A DNA stretch of 15,775 nucleotides, from NCBI GenBank assembly GCA_046757025.1, contig JBHHXN010000123.1, forward strand, positions 1 through 15,775, given 5' to 3'. Under the pieces are notes generated by a model. The model ran no database searches. It had not been told where the DNA came from and worked only from the letters and a program-made list of their open reading frames with translations. A program made the translations under genes and the position numbers. Source of the DNA: a bacterium (GTDB lineage: Bacteria; Zhuqueibacterota; Zhuqueibacteria; Oceanimicrobiales; Oceanimicrobiaceae). This document shows positions 213 through 14,142 of this stretch, one piece after another (the first letter of the stretch is position 1; every line of letters starts with the position of its first letter).

Positions 213-2087
213 ATGTCATTAAAGGTGAAAAAAGAATTCTTTGAGGAATATGTCCTTCATGTATCTTTTTTCAAAAACTTTTATGTAATCCTTTTTTTGG
301 GTTTCTGCCTCACCGCCCCCAGGGTGCACGGCCAGGACAAAGCTTCTGAATGGCTCAAAATCGGCCTGGAGGCATCGAATTACGAAGTCAGAGTCCAGTC
401 CTATGAAAAAGCCATTCAGATCGATCCCGATTTGATCGAAGCCTACTATCTTTTGGGGCTGGCTCACAAATCCCAGGGTCAGTATGAGCAGGCCGAGCTG
501 ATCCTAAACAAAGCCTACTTCAAAAATCCGTTCGCTTTGAGCAACAAAATCAAATCTAAGATTTTATTTGAGCTGGGCCGCATCTACTATCTGCAAGACA
601 AAGTGCAGAAAGCGCGGGATGCTCTGCAAGGCGCAAAAGAGTTGTCGCAAAAAAAGCTGCGGGGTAAAATCTGCTACGAGCTCGGGCAGTTGTTTTTAAA
701 AGAAGGCGAAATCGATCAGGCGCTGGAGGAGCTGCGCCAGGGCAAACGCCTGGCGCCTCAGGACGCCAGCATGTTCGACACCGCCCTGAATCTTGCGGAG
801 AGCAAAAAAGCCATCAACGAAAAATACAAACAAAGCGTCAGTTTGATGCATTCGGAACGCTTCGAACAGGCCGGCAAACTCCTCGATGAAATCATCGCCG
901 TGGACCCCGATTTTAAAGACGTGCAGCAAAAACGGCAGGAGGTCAATCGCCTCTCCGAACGCAGCAAGGTTCAAAAAGAGCTGGTGATTCTCTACAACCG
1001 TGCCAAACGTCACGTTCAAAAAAAAGAAATCCCGCCGGCAATCAAATTGTACCAGCAGATCGTTCAAACAGACAGCGGTTTCAGGGATGCGGCCATGCGG
1101 CTGAGCGATTTGCAAACTGCCACTGCCGAACAAACTAAATTAGACGAGACCCGAACTTTATACGACCAGGGCGTGGCGGCCTTCAACAACCAGAACTGGC
1201 GTTCGGCTTTAAATGCTTTTAGGCAAGTGCAGGAAATCGACAGCATGTATCGCGATGTGGCCGCTTTAAGTGCGCAGGCCCGCTCGCAGTTAGCGCAACA
1301 GGCCACCGCGGTCAAGAAAAAAGCTCGGCTGCGGGCACAAGCAGAAGCCTTTGTGGAAGCTCAGGACTGGCCGAATGCGATAAACGCTTTTGAGTCGCTA
1401 AAAAAAGCTTACCCGGCGGAAGCCGATCTGGACGCGAAGATTTCGAAAATCAAAAAAGCCCTGTCTGCAGATGCGCAGCTCGAGGTCACCGACATCGAAA
1501 CCCTGTATGAAGAAGGCGTTTTAGCTCTGCAAAACAGCGACTGGCAAAAGGCAGCCGCAGCTTTCGAAAAAGTGGCTTTGCTGGATTCGGCCTATCGGGA
1601 CGTGCAGAACAAACTGGCGGACGCCCGATTCAATTTTAACAAAAAACGTACGCCTGCGCTGCCGCCGGCAGCGCCTAAAGAAGCCAGCCAACTGATTCGT
1701 ATCGGCATCTTGGCGGCCTTGTTACTGATACTGGTGGCCGGCATCTGGGTAGCTTCGCACACCGTACGCGCACGTTTTTATTATTGGCGAAAGCAGTATG
1801 CTAAAAGCACCGCGATTTATGAAAAGAAGCTGGCTAGGAATCCGGGCCTCATAAAATTGTACACGATTTTAGCTGAACTGTATTTGATTCAAGATCGCCG
1901 CGATCACCAAGCTCTGAAGGTGTTCGAAACCATTTTAAAACTCAACATTTTCACCGACCACAAAAAAGAGATCCAATCCATCGTGGCCAATCAATACATG
2001 GAACAGGGTCGCACCGACATCAGCGCCATTCAGATCATGGAGCGCGAGCTGAATCTTAAAATCAACAACCCCAATCCCCAGCCATAA
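213..2087 (+). CDS. Exported single-pass membrane protein with TPR and ~56-aa helical repeats and a cytoplasmic TPR-like tail
   Basis: 624-aa ORF. N-terminal hydrophobic stretch ends in VHG|Q (signal-peptide-like). TPR motifs present (YEKAIQIDPDLIEAYYLLGLAH; ILFELGRIYY; ICYELGQLF). Recurrent D-x-x-[FY]-[RK]-D motif. TM helix LIRIGILAALLLILVAGIWVA followed by basic residues. Start codon uncertain. Confidence 0.85.
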   Translation: MSLKVKKEFFEEYVLHVSFFKNFYVILFLGFCLTAPRVHGQDKASEWLKIGLEASNYEVRVQSYEKAIQIDPDLIEAYYLLGLAHKSQGQYEQAELILNKAYFKNPFALSNKIKSKILFELGRIYYLQDKVQKARDALQGAKELSQKKLRGKICYELGQLFLKEGEIDQALEELRQGKRLAPQDASMFDTALNLAESKKAINEKYKQSVSLMHSERFEQAGKLLDEIIAVDPDFKDVQQKRQEVNRLSERSKVQKELVILYNRAKRHVQKKEIPPAIKLYQQIVQTDSGFRDAAMRLSDLQTATAEQTKLDETRTLYDQGVAAFNNQNWRSALNAFRQVQEIDSMYRDVAALSAQARSQLAQQATAVKKKARLRAQAEAFVEAQDWPNAINAFESLKKAYPAEADLDAKISKIKKALSADAQLEVTDIETLYEEGVLALQNSDWQKAAAAFEKVALLDSAYRDVQNKLADARFNFNKKRTPALPPAAPKEASQLIRIGILAALLLILVAGIWVASHTVRARFYYWRKQYAKSTAIYEKKLARNPGLIKLYTILAELYLIQDRRDHQALKVFETILKLNIFTDHKKEIQSIVANQYMEQGRTDISAIQIMERELNLKINNPNPQP

Positions 2088-4456
2088 TGAGCCGCAATAA
2101 TCCGAGTTACGATCACCAGGTCGTCAATCTGCTAAAAACGTTAGGCAAAGCCTACTTAGACAATGGAGAAAATCACAAGGCGGCGGAAAAATTCCGGCAG
2201 CTTGTAAATCATGGAATTGACGAGCCGGCGGTTGTACTGGATTATGCTCTAGCGTTGGCGCGCTGTGAAGCCACGCACCCGGAAGCGCTGTCCATTTACG
2301 AAAAGGCCATCGCCAGTACGGTCGCCAACGAGACGCTCTATCTCACCCTGGCCACGCTTTTCCTGAAAGAAGATATCATCGAAGCGCCGGCGCTGAAGGT
2401 GTTCCGACGCGCCCTGAAATACGCTCCGCCCTTTCAAGAGGAAATCCGCAACGCCTTAGAAAAAATATTTCACGAAACCACCGAAACCGTGACCACCCCC
2501 GAAATCCGCCGGGCACTGCTGGATAGCATCGACAACCCGGAGCTGCTTTCGCTTTACCTTTCCACCTCCTGGAAAGATGGCAAATTCGACGATACCCTGT
2601 ACATCCTGAAAGATCTCTACCAGCGCTCTAATCAGAACCGCATTTATTTGAAAGCCATCTGCCAGACTTTGCTGGAAAAAAAATCGCGCGCCGAAGAGCT
2701 GGGCATGAAGTTTCTCCTCTCTTCTTCGGATTTGCGGTACTGCTTCAGATACCTGAACATTGAAAAACCGCTCAATAAAATTCGCGAAGTCGAGCTCTAC
2801 CTGGATTTTAAAAATCTATTCATGGGATTTTCCAAAAAGCGGGAACGGGTAAAATCGCTGCAAAGCGAATATAAATTCTTTCTGGTGGACAATTCCACAA
2901 AAAGTTTTCAGCAAAATGCCGACATCGACAACATCTTATTCGACATCGATAGCGATTTCAGTCTCGAAAGGGATTTTTGGCGTAAAAAAAATCTGGAATA
3001 TATCGAACCGGCGCCTCCCTCATCAGCGAACGCTGCTGCCAATAGAAACAAAACAAAATCGCTTTCCGCCACAGAGGTGAAATCCCGCATTCACTCCCTG
3101 GCGATATTTGAAATCAGCAACTACGACGCCGACCCCGAGCAATCCAAGCTGCCGTTCCATACGTTCCTGAATTTGCTGGCAGGCGAAATCGCTCAATCGG
3201 AGGACGTCATTTTATGCGCCGCAGAAGACGGGCTTTTCGTTTTCAGCTCCGATGCGGAAAAATTGTTCAGAGCCGCACTGAACACGCTGTTTAAACTGGA
3301 AAGATACAATCAGGTGGTGGACGAGTGTGAAGTCATTCAGCTCAAAGTCACCCTGCACGCCAGCGAAATCCCGTTCTTATCTCTGGAAAACGAGGGCTTG
3401 CGAGAGCTGAGAAAAAGCATGAAAGTGCACAATCTGCCGAAAAATCCGGCAGATACGAACCAGCCGACTTTTTCTGGAGACTACCAGCTCATCGTCACAG
3501 AGAACATGACGCCCTATTTGAGACGTCAAAAGCTGAATCGGCTCGGTAAATTTCATTTGCCGCATTTGCCAAACTTGCATCCGGCTTTTGAAGTCATCGT
3601 GAACGATACCCGCAAAAATGTCCATCGCAAGTTCCGAAGCTCCTTTGGCAAATACGAGGTCTCGGACACCATCAAAGAGAATTCATTTTATGCCACCTAC
3701 CGCGGATACGACGCCCAATTGGAAAGAGCGGTGATCATAAAAGTGTACAATCCGCAGGCATTTGCCGAGTTCAAAGAGTTTTCACTTCTCAGAAAACAGT
3801 TCTTCGAAGAAATCCGCAAACTCAACAGAATAAACCACCCCAACATTGCGGTGATTTACGACGCCGGTGAAGATGAGAACAAATTGTATTTGGTCCGGGA
3901 ATACAACGAAGGCCAGATTCTCAACCATTATCTTTTGCAGCGGGGATTGCCGGAAATCAAGCGCACTCTGGAAATTTATCTGAAAATTTGCAAAACGCTG
4001 GCGAATTTTCACGCACACCAGATTTGGCACAAAAATCTAAAACCCGACAATATTTTCATCACCACTCAGGAGGAAATCAAATTGACGGACGGCGGGTTGC
4101 TGCAAGTGCGCCACTCCAACAAACTCTGGCACGCGGACATCGACAGCCACGCCTATTCCGCACCCGAGCAAATACAGGGACTGAAACTCACACAAAGCTG
4201 CGATGTGTTTCAATTAGGTGTGATGCTTTATGAAAGTCTGACCGGCTCGCATCCATTCAAAGCCCGCAACGCTTCCAGAGTTCGCATCCGGATCCTTGCA
4301 GACGAACCAGCGTCTATCCGCCCAATCCGACCGGACCTGCCACCGGAGGTGGAAACGGTTCTGATGAAATCCATGGCTAAGGACCCGAACCGGCGTTTTC
4401 AATCCATCGACCAATTGGCGCAAGCGCTGCAAAAAATGCACAAAAACGGCATCTGA
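2087..4456 (+). CDS. TPR-like / degenerate class III cyclase-like / Ser-Thr (pseudo)kinase multidomain protein
   Basis: 789-aa ORF, ATG overlaps the upstream TAA (TAATG). C-terminal Hanks fold: VIIK, HPNIAVIYD, HKNLKPDN, DGG, YSAPEQ, DVFQLGVMLYESLTG, KDPNRRF. Central region matches the cyclase pattern: AIFEI, EDGLFVF, KVTLHASE, QLIVTE, LGKFHL. Confidence 0.85.
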   Translation: MSRNNPSYDHQVVNLLKTLGKAYLDNGENHKAAEKFRQLVNHGIDEPAVVLDYALALARCEATHPEALSIYEKAIASTVANETLYLTLATLFLKEDIIEAPALKVFRRALKYAPPFQEEIRNALEKIFHETTETVTTPEIRRALLDSIDNPELLSLYLSTSWKDGKFDDTLYILKDLYQRSNQNRIYLKAICQTLLEKKSRAEELGMKFLLSSSDLRYCFRYLNIEKPLNKIREVELYLDFKNLFMGFSKKRERVKSLQSEYKFFLVDNSTKSFQQNADIDNILFDIDSDFSLERDFWRKKNLEYIEPAPPSSANAAANRNKTKSLSATEVKSRIHSLAIFEISNYDADPEQSKLPFHTFLNLLAGEIAQSEDVILCAAEDGLFVFSSDAEKLFRAALNTLFKLERYNQVVDECEVIQLKVTLHASEIPFLSLENEGLRELRKSMKVHNLPKNPADTNQPTFSGDYQLIVTENMTPYLRRQKLNRLGKFHLPHLPNLHPAFEVIVNDTRKNVHRKFRSSFGKYEVSDTIKENSFYATYRGYDAQLERAVIIKVYNPQAFAEFKEFSLLRKQFFEEIRKLNRINHPNIAVIYDAGEDENKLYLVREYNEGQILNHYLLQRGLPEIKRTLEIYLKICKTLANFHAHQIWHKNLKPDNIFITTQEEIKLTDGGLLQVRHSNKLWHADIDSHAYSAPEQIQGLKLTQSCDVFQLGVMLYESLTGSHPFKARNASRVRIRILADEPASIRPIRPDLPPEVETVLMKSMAKDPNRRFQSIDQLAQALQKMHKNGI

Positions 4457-8575: not shown

Positions 8576-8624
8576 CTTTTCGCAGCATTGTCTGCGAAAA
8601 GGCTTAGGCGCTTACAACGCCTAA
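8576..8624. other. Two adjacent hairpins at the 3' end of the minus-strand operon (possible terminator or RNA-stabilising structure)
   Basis: CTTTTCGCAG/CTGCGAAAAG 10-bp stem (8576-8601). TTAGGCG/CGCCTAA stem (8604-8624) overlaps the ferredoxin stop codon and is followed on the minus strand by GCCTTTT. Confidence 0.45.
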
Positions 8625-9037
8625 AACAGCGGCTTGCCGATCATTTCGAACAGCATGAAGATGGCGAAGAACAGCGTGCCGCCGCCAAACACCAGCACCG
8701 CCGCGCCCACTTTCAGCGATTCGTGCATCTGTTCGCCGTATTCCAATGCGGGTGCGATGCTCACTTTGGCGTCGTCCAGTAGTTTTGCCTGGCAGGCGAG
8801 ACGAACTTTGCCATCCTGCCCCACGTGCAGCTTTTCTTTCCAGGTGGGCACCGACACACAATCTTTGGGCGCTACGGTGATGCGGTCGCTGCCGCACAGA
8901 CCGAAACCGCGACAGTTCAGATATTTGTTGACGCCGCCATGAACGGGCACTTTATTGGCATGGGCGATTTTGCGGATATCGTCGCCTTCTTTGGCGGTGA
9001 CGGTGACATTGGCTTCTTCGAATTGAATAGCTGGCAT
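8621..9037 (-). CDS. [2Fe-2S] ferredoxin-type protein with C-terminal membrane anchor
   Basis: NCRGFGLCGSD and RLACQ motifs of the Fer2 family. Hydrophobic C-terminus VGAAVLVFGGGTLFFAIFMLF. SD GAGGAG upstream. Confidence 0.85.
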   Translation of the reverse strand: MPAIQFEEANVTVTAKEGDDIRKIAHANKVPVHGGVNKYLNCRGFGLCGSDRITVAPKDCVSVPTWKEKLHVGQDGKVRLACQAKLLDDAKVSIAPALEYGEQMHESLKVGAAVLVFGGGTLFFAIFMLFEMIGKPLF

Positions 9038-11454: not shown

Positions 11455-13248
11455 TTATTCTCCTAAAAATGCCACTCCTGCCGCACCCGGGCCGGCATGC
11501 GCCCCTAAAGCGGGTGAGACGTTTACGATCATGATATTTTGCACTTCAAATTGTTTTTTGATATTTTCAACAAACCAGTCGGCCGTTTCCGGAGCGTTAG
11601 CGTGCGCCACGGCGAATCTCAAATTGCGCTTGCCCCGGGCGTCTTCACAAATTAGCTTCATAGTGGCTTTCAGAGCAGCCTTCCCGCCAAAAGTCTTGGC
11701 CAGGGTTTGAACTTTGCCCTCAATATCCAGAGTGAGAATGGGTTTGAGATTCAAAGCCATGGCCAGCAGACCTCGTGATCTACTCAGCCGGCCGCCGCGG
11801 ATCAGATACTCCACGGTGGCGACCGATACATAAAAACGCACATTTTTTATGGCGCGCTCAACCCGCGATCTCACCTCTTCCAGACGGCATCCTTCTTCGA
11901 TGGCCTGAGCCGCCTCGGCCACAATCAAACCCAGCCCCACGCTGGTGTTGCTGCTATCCATCACCAGAATTTTTTTATCGGCAGCGGACTTTGCGCCGGT
12001 CTGCGCCGCCTGCAGCGTGCCACTCACCGCGCCCGACAGATGAATGGAAATGGCTTCGTCGTAATGCCCCCACAATTCGTTGTAGGTATTTAAAAAATCG
12101 CCCGGTGTCGGCTGGGAAGTTTTAGGATAATGTGGCGATTCCTGTAACAATCGGTAAAATTCTTTGGGTGTGATGGTGATTTTATCAATGTAATTTTCAT
12201 TTCCAAACGACACCTGCACCGGCACCATTTGCACGTTGTGACGAATGATGAATTCCGGCGGCAGGTCACAGGAAGAGTCGGTTACCAAGGCAATTTTGGA
12301 AGTCGAATTTTCACCGTACGCCTGACTGTGCTGATCGCGCATGTCGTCGGTCTTTTGCTTGCTGATTGCGCCGAATTGCCGGGCGATATTGAAAACGGTT
12401 TCCGGCTCGTTGGTATGAATGTGGACCCGCAGCTTCTCCGAAGAGCCCGCCACGATGAGGGAATCGCCCAGCGAAGCGATTTCTTGTCGCAGCTTTATTC
12501 TATCCATCTGTTGGCCTTGGATGAAACACTCGGTGCAAAATTGGTAGGAAATGTCCTGAGGTGCATTTTTCACTATAGCACGCGGAATGAGCTTGCCACC
12601 GCCCAGTCCTACAGATTTATCGTACTTGCCGGATTCCATGAAATGCAGCACACCTTCCAGTAAATGCACAAACCCCTGCGCCCCGGCGTCCACTACTCCG
12701 GCTTTAGAAAGTAGCTTCAATTTTTTGGGGGTCTCTTTTAACGAACGCTGAGCCTCGTTTAGTCCCCTCCGCAGCAAGTCCATATAATCTTGTGAAATGT
12801 GACAATGATTTTTTATGTGGTTGGCCCAGTCGTGAATCACTGTGAGAATGGTGCCTTCTTTGGGCTCGGTGATGGCTTCGTAGGCGCCGTTTTTGGCCCG
12901 TTCGGCCGCTTCGCCAAAATGTTTGAGAGACGCCTGAATCTTGCCCCGAAAGCTGTCGGCCAGTCCCTGAAAAAATTGCGCCAAGATTGCGCCGGAATTA
13001 CCCCTCGCCCCCATGAGCGCGGAGTCCGCCAGACACTGGCTCATGCCGGAAATACTGAATTCCCGACAATTGATGGCGCCTTCGGCCACGCTTTGCATGG
13101 TCAGCGCCATGTTGGTGCCGGTGTCGTTGTCTGGCACGGGAAAAACGTTGATTCGGTTCAAATTCTCCTGCATCATGATAACCCGTCGGGCACCTGCAAT
13201 CACCGCCTGCCTCAGATGTTTACCGTCGATGGAGTCGATTTTCATCAT
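11455..13248 (-). CDS. Fatty acid kinase fusion: DAK2 (FakA-like) + DegV (FakB-like)
   Basis: FakA motifs NVFPVPDNDTGTNM, GARGNSG, EGTILTV, VDAG, FCTE and HIHTNEP. DegV motifs TDSSCDL, KTSQP, LSGAVSGT, GGR and HAGPG. Start placed at ATG 13248 (or 13245) because the ORF-track extension overlaps the promoter. Confidence 0.93.
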   Translation of the reverse strand: MMKIDSIDGKHLRQAVIAGARRVIMMQENLNRINVFPVPDNDTGTNMALTMQSVAEGAINCREFSISGMSQCLADSALMGARGNSGAILAQFFQGLADSFRGKIQASLKHFGEAAERAKNGAYEAITEPKEGTILTVIHDWANHIKNHCHISQDYMDLLRRGLNEAQRSLKETPKKLKLLSKAGVVDAGAQGFVHLLEGVLHFMESGKYDKSVGLGGGKLIPRAIVKNAPQDISYQFCTECFIQGQQMDRIKLRQEIASLGDSLIVAGSSEKLRVHIHTNEPETVFNIARQFGAISKQKTDDMRDQHSQAYGENSTSKIALVTDSSCDLPPEFIIRHNVQMVPVQVSFGNENYIDKITITPKEFYRLLQESPHYPKTSQPTPGDFLNTYNELWGHYDEAISIHLSGAVSGTLQAAQTGAKSAADKKILVMDSSNTSVGLGLIVAEAAQAIEEGCRLEEVRSRVERAIKNVRFYVSVATVEYLIRGGRLSRSRGLLAMALNLKPILTLDIEGKVQTLAKTFGGKAALKATMKLICEDARGKRNLRFAVAHANAPETADWFVENIKKQFEVQNIMIVNVSPALGAHAGPGAAGVAFLGE

Positions 13249-13284
13249 CTTACATTGTCGCCCAGAGTTGTTATTTTTTGTGTT

Positions 13285-13313
13285 AATGTAATTGCATTCC
13301 GGCAAAAAGTCAA
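13285..13313 (-). promoter_or_regulatory. Putative sigma70 promoter of the fak-plsY operon (TTGACT-17-TACATT)
   Basis: On the minus strand, -35 TTGACT (13313-13308), 17-nt spacer, -10 TACATT (13290-13285), about 37 nt upstream of the ATG. Confidence 0.6.
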
Positions 13314-13605: not shown

Positions 13606-14142
13606 TTGACGGGGAAAACCCTGTCGACAACTCATGGCGTCGAAGTCAAAGCCATCTCGGATGAAGATTTTCGTTTACTTGATTACGAAGTCATGGGATT
13701 GGCCTTCTCGATTCATCGAGAACTGGGTAGATTTTGGAATGAAACGATCTATCAGAATGAGCTGGCCGCTCATTATCAGAAGGCTGGATTTGAAAAAGTG
13801 GCCACAAAGGTTCTATCAGAGTGGCCCAAGATGACAAATCTTGAAAAAGAATGGGGCGCTTTTCTTGGTACCAGCTTGTTTAATGAGGCAATTTATCATT
13901 TTTGTGACGGCGATGAGAACGCGGCCAGGAAAATTGCAATCAAAAATGACTCAAACATTCCTGGCCGGCAAAAAGTTCATTTGATCAATTCAGAAGTTGT
14001 TTTCACGATCTCATCCATTACGAAAGGCGAAACATTTTACGAGCAAGATCTTCGCCGGTGTATTCGGTTCGCGTCGTTAAAAGCGATGCAATGGAGCAAT
14101 TTTAACCATAATTGAATCATCTTCAAAGCGATTCTTCCTTAG
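13606..14142 (+). pseudogene. GxxExxY family (PD-(D/E)xK-like) protein, internally deleted with a probable premature stop
   Basis: VMGLAFSIHRELGRFWNETIYQNEL aligns to the GxxExxY N-terminus. A second half-repeat EWGAFLGTSLFNEAI follows, but the D...ELK nuclease core is absent. TGA at 14113-14115 is followed in frame by IIFKAILP-TAG. Confidence 0.7.

Follow-up and report, generated by a model that had tools for sequence, protein, structure and literature searches.

A TPR membrane protein and a pseudo-cyclase/pseudokinase as a candidate split receptor in a Hanks kinase-FHA-PP2C cassette of a Zhuqueibacterota bacterium

Contig JBHHXN010000123.1 of assembly GCA_046757025.1, from a bacterium of the family Oceanimicrobiaceae (Zhuqueibacterota), begins with two genes on the + strand that are the subject of this report; the window is the whole stretch of 15,775 nucleotides analyzed, which forms the start of this contig (C123). 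The upstream gene (gene 1, 624 residues) encodes a single-pass membrane protein free of enzyme domains, and the downstream gene (gene 2, 789 residues) encodes a soluble protein in which a class III nucleotidyl-cyclase fold and a Hanks-type kinase fold have both lost catalytic residues. We consider it probable, though with real reservations, that gene 1 anchors gene 2 to the membrane and that the pair, as the input arm of a five-gene cassette, feeds a kinase-FHA-PP2C circuit as a scaffold or allosteric partner. The arrangement combines known folds into what would be Hanks kinase-FHA-PP2C signaling with a split receptor pseudokinase; it is conserved and apparently undescribed. A preliminary description made from the window's letters alone had already proposed a split receptor with a non-catalytic partner, and this idea is supported by co-conservation of the genes, family-wide residue loss and a predicted interface.

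The open reading frames of the two genes (213-2087 and 2087-4456) have one base in common within a TAATG overlap, and in 56 of 70 homologous receptor-pseudoenzyme gene pairs the gap is 30 nt or less. Gene 1 contains only two strong hydrophobic segments by hydropathy (KD) score, residues 17-35 (mean KD 1.68) and 497-515, and its Pfam TPR matches span about residues 53-460. The start codon is uncertain, as one database gene call starts at residue 29; in most of 30 homologue N-termini, judged by eye, the signal-like stretch ends immediately before a Gln. Orthologues in relatives occupy the same gene position with 37-43% identity. The cytoplasmic tail is the best-conserved portion of gene 1, and among gene 1 paralogues the ectodomain solenoid varies in length or is absent. 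Pfam and NCBIfam scans gave no FecR match in gene 1. Gene 2 has no hydrophobic segment above a KD of 1.26, and its N-terminal 260 residues are modeled by AF2 as helical repeats. Both layouts, including the tail of about 110 residues and the two altered catalytic folds, are thus as the preliminary description had read them. Scanning the locus for promoters and terminators yielded nothing informative. The features are collected in Table 1.

Table 1. Coordinates of the two genes and their features within the window
Feature	Position	Strand	Basis or remark
Gene 1, single-pass membrane protein without enzyme domain, 624 aa: signal peptide, TPR ectodomain, transmembrane helix, tail	213..2087	+	
Probable signal peptide (aa 1-40)	213..332	+	Hydropathy and homologue N-termini; mature start likely Gln41
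TPR/helical solenoid (aa 41-480), probably periplasmic	333..1652	+	Pfam TPR families
Transmembrane helix (aa 497-515)	1701..1757	+	Mean KD 2.64; homologues hydrophobic at same place
Cytoplasmic tail domain (aa 515-624; 110 aa)	1755..2084	+	Three TPR-like hairpins, RxDxxA motif
Predicted docking surface of tail (aa 592-617)	1986..2063	+	Complex model
TAATG stop/start overlap	2085..2089	+	TAA 2085-2087, ATG 2087-2089, one base common
Gene 2, soluble TPR - pseudo-cyclase - pseudokinase, 789 aa	2087..4456	+	
N-terminal helical repeats (aa 9-260)	2111..2866	+	AF2 model
Predicted docking helix, first of gene 2 (aa 9-26)	2111-2164	+	Complex model
Class III nucleotidyl-cyclase fold, incomplete catalytic set (aa 333-508)	3083..3610	+	
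Hanks-type pseudokinase domain (aa 521-786)	3647..4444	+	Pfam, structure match, homologue alignment
Catalytic loop HKNLKPDN	4028-4051	+	

The kinase domain of gene 2 is matched by the Pfam Pkinase family over residues 533-776 (E 3e-38), and its nearest solved kinases are Stk1, PknA and PknB. The glycine loop is lost (IKENSFY), HRD is replaced by HKN (N650), DFG by DGG and the gatekeeper Met by Arg; the beta3 Lys (K552), the alphaC Glu and the DFG Asp (D668) are kept. We gathered 105 distinct gene 2 homologues from the loci of relatives, and the denominators given below are those readable at each position. No homologue has Asp at the HRD position (0/93; 76 Asn, 10 Arg, 5 Lys, 1 Ser and 1 Gly) or a GxGxxG glycine loop (0/95). 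The gatekeeper is Arg in 94/94, the beta3 Lys is present in 91/95, the catalytic-loop Asn in 92/93 and the DFG Asp in 91/91, and the combination of HxN with an Arg gatekeeper is common to 8 families. Under the definition of a pseudokinase as a kinase fold that has lost one or more of the beta3 Lys, HRD Asp and DFG Asp, taken here from the accessible part of PMC12599244, gene 2 is by its sequence a pseudokinase. No Thr stood out as a family-wide phospho-site. Two positions of the N-lobe dimer face are strongly conserved, L545 (92/95) and D/E592 (94/94), which presumably correspond to Leu33 and Asp76 of PknB, our alignment having been made to PknA and Stk1.

The altered motifs might also be expected of a kinase-cyclase gene that is decaying next to an unrelated TPR protein. 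We give this explanation practically no credence and rule it out: 10 other genomes of the family have gene 2 as a full-length open frame, 42-54% identical, the signature extends across 8 families and the gene order is kept. That the loss of catalytic residues is family-wide points to a conserved design rather than decay, and the preliminary description had named retention of these residues in orthologues as the sign of a decaying copy.

The cyclase-like domain was missed by Pfam and NCBIfam and was found through profile and fold searches only. A profile of 44 homologues ranks the Ma1120 cyclase first among solved chains, weakly (E 0.018). When the domain was modeled alone with AF2 the pLDDT was 90, and Foldseek with this model gave class III nucleotidyl cyclases only among the matches listed, with a TM score of 0.67 to Ma1120; with the whole gene 2 model only kinases were among the matches listed. 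VIA comparison of the domain model to a class III cyclase gave a Z of 16.5 and a root mean square deviation of 3.0 over 151 aligned residues. Gene 2 therefore has the fold of the class III adenylyl/guanylyl cyclases (Ma1120, CyaB) with an incomplete catalytic set. Relative to the three intact cyclases of the same genome, Glu342 stands in for the first metal Asp, D381 preserves the second, Cys377 replaces the substrate Lys, and the stretch from beta3 to helix alpha4 is ~9 residues shorter. The NxxxR helix is lost, with no Asn in gene 2 helix 436-448 (the register of this helix is uncertain), and NxxxR is present in only 2/105 homologues. Both metal Asp residues occur together in none of 99 homologues. 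The longest of the 105 homologues has 914 residues and no receptor-pseudoenzyme fusion was seen among them, which is weak evidence.

With this residue pattern gene 2 might itself be the transducer, either as a nucleotide-binding switch or as a weakly active HxN kinase resembling HER3, with the cyclase-like domain sensing nucleotide or metal, the receptor controlling gene 2 directly and the cassette kinase playing a secondary part. HER3, in the available portion of PMC13259870 (Table 2), has HRNxxxxN, DFG and an accessible ATP site, and gene 2 likewise combines an HxN loop with the kept Lys, catalytic-loop Asn and DFG Asp. In addition, the cyclase-like domain of the gene 2 clade keeps E342/D381 together with an invariant E440-R442-K443-K446-H448 patch, and at 3 of 20 distant or extra-copy loci only tail genes and the pseudoenzyme are present. 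The universal loss of the glycine loop is, however, unlike HER3, the Arg gatekeeper may block ATP, and acidic residues occupy both cyclase metal sites in only 11/99 homologues. A profile search of 1.84 billion representatives bears on the same question; the best 150 matches were taken, one unrelated 1101-residue protein being dropped, and 79 of them have a cyclase-like domain before the kinase domain. HGD is found in 2 of the 74 that are readable (P0103 and P0156), both without the glycine loop and the alphaC Glu. One of the two is 89% identical to an HGG copy, which suggests drift, and activity in both would still be conceivable. Apart from these two family members, the active kinases with cyclase domains among the best 150 matches had other architectures. 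The preliminary description had anticipated active cyclase-kinase paralogues with the same N-terminal module, and none was found in this genome, where the only full-length paralogue is also without catalytic residues. Overall, we regard a transducer role for gene 2 itself as unlikely, if not negligibly so.

A candidate for an unsplit ancestor was considered and rejected. G000:C25:482-2947, a TPR-transmembrane-active kinase protein, is the best active match of gene 2, but its ectodomain is no nearer to gene 1 than generic TPRs are, and a kinase tree (a quick one, with long branches) does not place it with the pseudokinases. The region G000:C25:482-4634 encodes a single-chain signal peptide-TPR-transmembrane-active RD kinase followed by an FHA-like protein, a layout as in gene 1 plus gene 2 without specific relationship.

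The tail of gene 1 is, as judged from sequence comparison, a portable domain and a relative of the gene 2 N-terminus, and both points are new, as are its place upstream of most pseudoenzyme genes and its predicted docking on gene 2. In hhalign the tail scores 90 against the gene 2 N-terminus, where gene 1's own ectodomain repeats score 30-55. Tail-bearing proteins range from 117 to 740 residues and include a 130-residue transmembrane protein that precedes a gene 2 paralogue. A tail gene lies directly upstream of 70 of the 105 distinct pseudoenzyme genes; 4 are too close to a contig end, and 25 of the 31 without one have a PP2C gene there instead. An ESM Atlas search with the tail found generic TPR clusters only, all under 0.9. 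Tail genes also form arrays in relatives: at L146, L147, L148, L149, L150 and L168, 3-5 tail-bearing TPR membrane genes are arrayed around a TonB-dependent receptor gene.

Prediction of a complex between the tail and the gene 2 N-terminus, a check proposed in the preliminary description, returned an interface with an ipSAE of 0.63, against 0.00 for the best of 3 controls. At least 93% of contacts agree between runs and the partner pLDDT is at least 88. The ipSAE mark is reached by 116/157 solved complexes and 2/215 mismatched pairs, counts that are only rough here because our own alignments were used. In the model, helix 9-26 of gene 2 packs head-to-tail onto tail residues 592-617, in the manner of successive TPR repeats. 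The tail would present a conserved hydrophobic surface (Y595, L596, A605, I606, L609 and L613), and in the gene 2 helix L19 is found in 104/104 and Y23 in 99/104 homologues. We therefore predict that the gene 1 tail grips the first helix of gene 2, and a TPR solenoid split across two chains is plausible; such a continuous solenoid would make one receptor pseudokinase of the two chains.

The homology of the tail and the gene 2 N-terminus would also suit a binding domain present in two copies, each with a third protein as its partner (for instance the cassette kinase or the FHA protein) rather than the other copy. The 31/105 pseudoenzyme genes without an upstream tail gene and an undecided coevolution test fit this explanation. 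Against it, the positions that meet in the model have stayed hydrophobic on both chain ends, and the two paralogous pairs of the family differ at matched positions, with E612/L613/K616 and V12/L15 in one and A612/V613/E616 and L12/M15 in the other. Binding of a third protein in place of the predicted contact is, in our judgment, decidedly improbable.

The sequence context indicates that the pair is the end of a five-gene cassette comprising an intact kinase, an FHA-propeller protein, a PP2C, the receptor and the pseudoenzyme. A contig break separates the upstream cassette genes from the window. Located at the end of contig C3 are a kinase, an FHA-propeller, a PP2C, the 130-residue transmembrane protein, an 828-residue gene 2 paralogue, type IV pilus-like genes (names assigned from sequence features) and a second kinase and FHA-propeller. 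It terminates in a dispersed repeat of ~190-250 bp (G000:C3:100104-100423), of which the genome has dozens of diverged copies, so we infer the join of C3 to C123. In 5 of 9 relatives examined the whole same-strand run is contiguous and ends in genes 1 and 2, and 2 more show its second half. The proposed pairing of two genes stands, but a system of just these two is drawn too small; likewise, the active partner that the preliminary description had placed elsewhere is encoded in the same cassette.

The cassette kinase carries a transmembrane segment and PEGA, and the FHA-propeller is a two-FHA membrane protein with a beta-propeller. The G-loop, HxD and DFG are all kept in 39/39 cassette kinases, and all four motifs in 48/54 cassette PP2C proteins. 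The second FHA domain keeps the G-R...S-R-R phospho-Thr motif in 32/36, and the first has the Arg in 2/29. At 20 more distant or extra-copy loci the kinase/FHA/PP2C cassette is present in 17 (one cut by a contig end). Searching for loci related to the pair yielded unrelated kinases only. In this family the cassette is duplicated, with the copies flanking a type IV pilus operon. At locus L068 the outer neighbors seen here enclose only one cassette, which makes duplication around an inserted pilus operon the likely history. Two further features adjoin the cassette. The type IV pilus-like operon between the cassette copies (G000:C3:83337-94986; also L086 and L087) has pilin-like genes whose products begin MG... 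with little or no leader. Divergent from the cassette at G000:C3:67737-73346 are genes for an RsbU-like phosphatase and an anti-sigma kinase together with MlaE/F/D-like genes, as also at L068, L073 and L156 of other families.

The position of both cassette copies beside pilus genes on one strand raises the alternative that the pair serves the adjacent type IV pilus-like machine as an accessory in structure or assembly, comparable to EssB/YukC in type VIIb secretion, and relays no signal. The pseudokinase YukC provides a precedent in the accessible text of PMC12599244, and in one relative (G014, L014:817-1489) gene 2 directly follows the minor pilin genes, with gene 1, the kinase and the FHA gene all absent and a masked stretch in the gap. 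Pilus genes are, however, found at 0/20 of the distant or extra-copy loci within the stretch fetched. The PilM-PilN query, moreover, had no match in 9/10 genomes of a family whose members all carry the cassette, and 34 cassette-less genomes do match. The notion that the cassette always lies beside pilus genes was rejected on these grounds, and for the pair itself an accessory role in the pilus has only a slim chance of being correct.

In a survey of 167 genomes of the phylum, from which 9 weak TPR-only matches were dropped, the pseudoenzyme was found in 69, all of one class. The tail is strongly matched (best E under 1e-25) in 60/69 genomes with the pseudoenzyme versus 1/98 without, and the FHA-propeller is present in 66/69 versus 5/98. 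Database labels of the homologues read "candidate division KSB1" and, in one case, "Calditrichaeota".

Outer-membrane proteins recur near the tail genes of relatives. A TonB-dependent receptor or related barrel lies no more than 2 genes away in 17 of 50 loci picked by tail match, against a background of 27-47 plug genes per genome; a Pfam check covered 9 of these 17 loci. Seventeen neighbors have a common N-terminal domain without a Pfam match, which from its pattern may be a short beta-helix. A class-wide search found this domain strongly in 24/125 genomes, each of which also carries the pseudoenzyme, and weakly in one outlier. Outside the training set there were 16 matches, of which 8 adjoin a tail gene or lie inside a cassette (one of them already known), 1 has as its neighbor a gene 1 homologue that lacks the tail, 3 run into a contig end and the other 4 are not adjacent. 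The cassette itself is interrupted at L211:573-15000, L214, L066 and L034:13148-13810: between the PP2C and the receptor or pseudoenzyme lies an outer-membrane receptor that has this N-terminal domain, or the domain alone (220 residues).

Taken together, these data suggest the following order of events for the tethered pair. Sequence and model assign gene 1 a TPR ectodomain, a transmembrane helix and a conserved tail, and gene 2 cyclase and kinase folds without catalytic residues. The last tail helices and the first gene 2 helix are predicted to stack as one TPR solenoid, which would hold gene 2 at the membrane, and gene context indicates that the pair is inherited with the intact kinase, the two-FHA beta-propeller membrane protein and the PP2C. 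An envelope cue may then cluster or re-orient the receptor, and the docked pseudokinase would scaffold or allosterically partner the cassette kinase, likely through the conserved N-lobe dimer face, with phospho-Thr marks read by the second FHA domain and erased by PP2C. The ends of the pathway are its weakest part: the output in this family would likely be the type IV pilus-like machine between the cassette copies, and in other families the outer-membrane barrels with the shared N-terminal domain would likely be the upstream partners. A more ambitious version joins all of this into a receptor-adaptor system spanning both membranes with the logic of cytokine receptors and JAKs. Barrels would engage expandable, enzyme-free TPR receptors, and a common tail with the pseudo-cyclase/pseudokinase hub would gate the Hanks kinase-FHA-PP2C circuit, which here would have been duplicated and re-wired to a type IV pilus. 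We put this version forward tentatively, as a possibility that falls short of even odds.

Besides the two HGD relatives, several observations weigh against the proposal that gene 1 docks gene 2 onto the cassette circuit. The predicted interface is ordinary repeat-on-repeat TPR stacking, the best solved matches of the tail are consensus TPR proteins, and the controls for the complex model were unrelated proteins not picked as TPRs, so the ipSAE result may partly reflect likeness to solved TPR proteins. Covariation between the two sides of the interface goes no further than the clade level: it survived within-clade shuffles when 4 clades were used, but with 6 or 10 clades 18-20 of 60 shuffles reach the observed value, and a column permutation gave a p of 0.06. 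Active bacterial kinases commonly have the dimer-face residues as well, and the role of these residues may be structural. A strong tail match was not seen in 9/69 pseudoenzyme genomes. PilM-PilN is present in 51/69 pseudoenzyme genomes versus 34/98 others, so the distribution of this pilus gene does not follow that of the cassette. A search of this genome (95% complete) at E<=1e-25 did not find the N-terminal domain of the barrels, which occurs in only 1/20 family members. Finally, the genomes are related and many are incomplete, and all such tallies overstate independence.

Parts of the arrangement resemble known systems. In FecA-FecR-FecI cell-surface signaling a TonB-dependent receptor acts through a membrane protein on a sigma factor, and in relatives of the present genome a TonB-dependent receptor with a long N-terminal extension likewise adjoins a single-pass inner-membrane protein. 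The present case differs in that nothing in Pfam matches the extension, the membrane component is of the TPR kind, a pseudokinase takes the place of the sigma factor as predicted cytoplasmic partner, and no such barrel was found in this genome. A cytokine receptor, itself enzyme-free, recruits the cytosolic kinase-fold protein JAK through its membrane-proximal tail; the likeness to JAK and to HER3 is one of analogy only, with no homology beyond the kinase fold and, here, a prokaryotic operon. The resemblance to receptor guanylyl cyclases drawn in the preliminary description turned out to be loose: those are single chains of ectodomain, transmembrane helix, kinase homology domain and active cyclase, whereas here two genes encode cyclase before kinase with the cyclase residues lost, so that the two differ in the order of domains, the number of chains and the catalytic status. 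The threonine-phosphorylation pathway of T6SS (the type VI secretion system), whose phosphatase is PppA, has kinase, PP2C and FHA genes together as here; it has no pseudoenzyme or TPR receptor, the neighboring machine here is type IV pilus-like and found in one family only, and the locus contains no T6SS core genes. This pathway, the TagQ/TagR-PpkA-Fha1 relay, spans the envelope and uses a membrane kinase and an FHA reader to gate a surface machine encoded alongside (PMC13713981, from the accessible text).

The closest published circuit is perhaps the mycobacterial one of PknB, MviN and FhaA, in which, according to the available part of PMC12599244, PknB phosphorylates the pseudokinase tail, FhaA is recruited, and a back-to-back dimer face is used. 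Both circuits combine an active Hanks kinase with a pseudokinase and an FHA protein, and the dimer-face residues are conserved here as in MviN. The MviN pseudokinase lies within a membrane protein, its Lys, Asp and DFG being lost, whereas gene 2 is soluble, keeps Lys and the DFG Asp, includes a pseudo-cyclase and has a separate membrane partner. A bacterial kinase atlas (10.1101/2025.01.12.632604) describes, in its main text, seven pseudokinase families (ActPs1-3, CP1, DYD, DLHK and GLW), with the VAIK-Lys substituted in all members of five of them, in 34% of CP1 and in 60% of DYD. The gene 2 family, with Lys kept in 91/95, differs from these five, and CP1 and DYD are not set apart by motif alone; ActPs2 has the same Asp to Asn change but also Lys to Arg and a DFG deletion. 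The atlas main text contains neither "cyclase" nor "KSB1", such a system goes unmentioned in the accessible part of a KSB1 genome paper (PMC11683472), and literature searches found no description of it, most subscription papers lying beyond their reach.

Three other genes of the window were noted. A 616-residue protein (11455-13305) fuses DAK2 (FakA-like) and DegV domains upstream of a plsY-like gene. A 138-residue protein (8621-9037) has the look of a 2Fe-2S ferredoxin with a C-terminal hydrophobic helix and gave no Pfam match at E 0.01. A short open reading frame at 13606-14115, in a lower-GC stretch, has a partial PD-(D/E)XK (PDDEXK_3) match over residues 26-69 only and is possibly degraded.

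The organisms concerned are uncultured and every part of the system is a known fold; the predicted interaction is nevertheless a small two-domain one that is amenable to testing in vitro. The family adds a pseudokinase group whose signature is clear (an HxN loop and an Arg gatekeeper together with retained Lys and DFG Asp) and which falls outside the seven atlas families by the descriptions in the accessible text, with CP1 and DYD not separated by motif alone. In known bacterial Hanks-kinase receptors the sensor and the kinase are mostly on one chain, whereas here a single portable tail and a single soluble double pseudoenzyme appear to serve many enzyme-free membrane proteins, as in the receptor-adaptor designs familiar from animals. 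In these bacteria TonB-dependent receptors may thus signal to Ser/Thr phosphorylation besides sigma factors.

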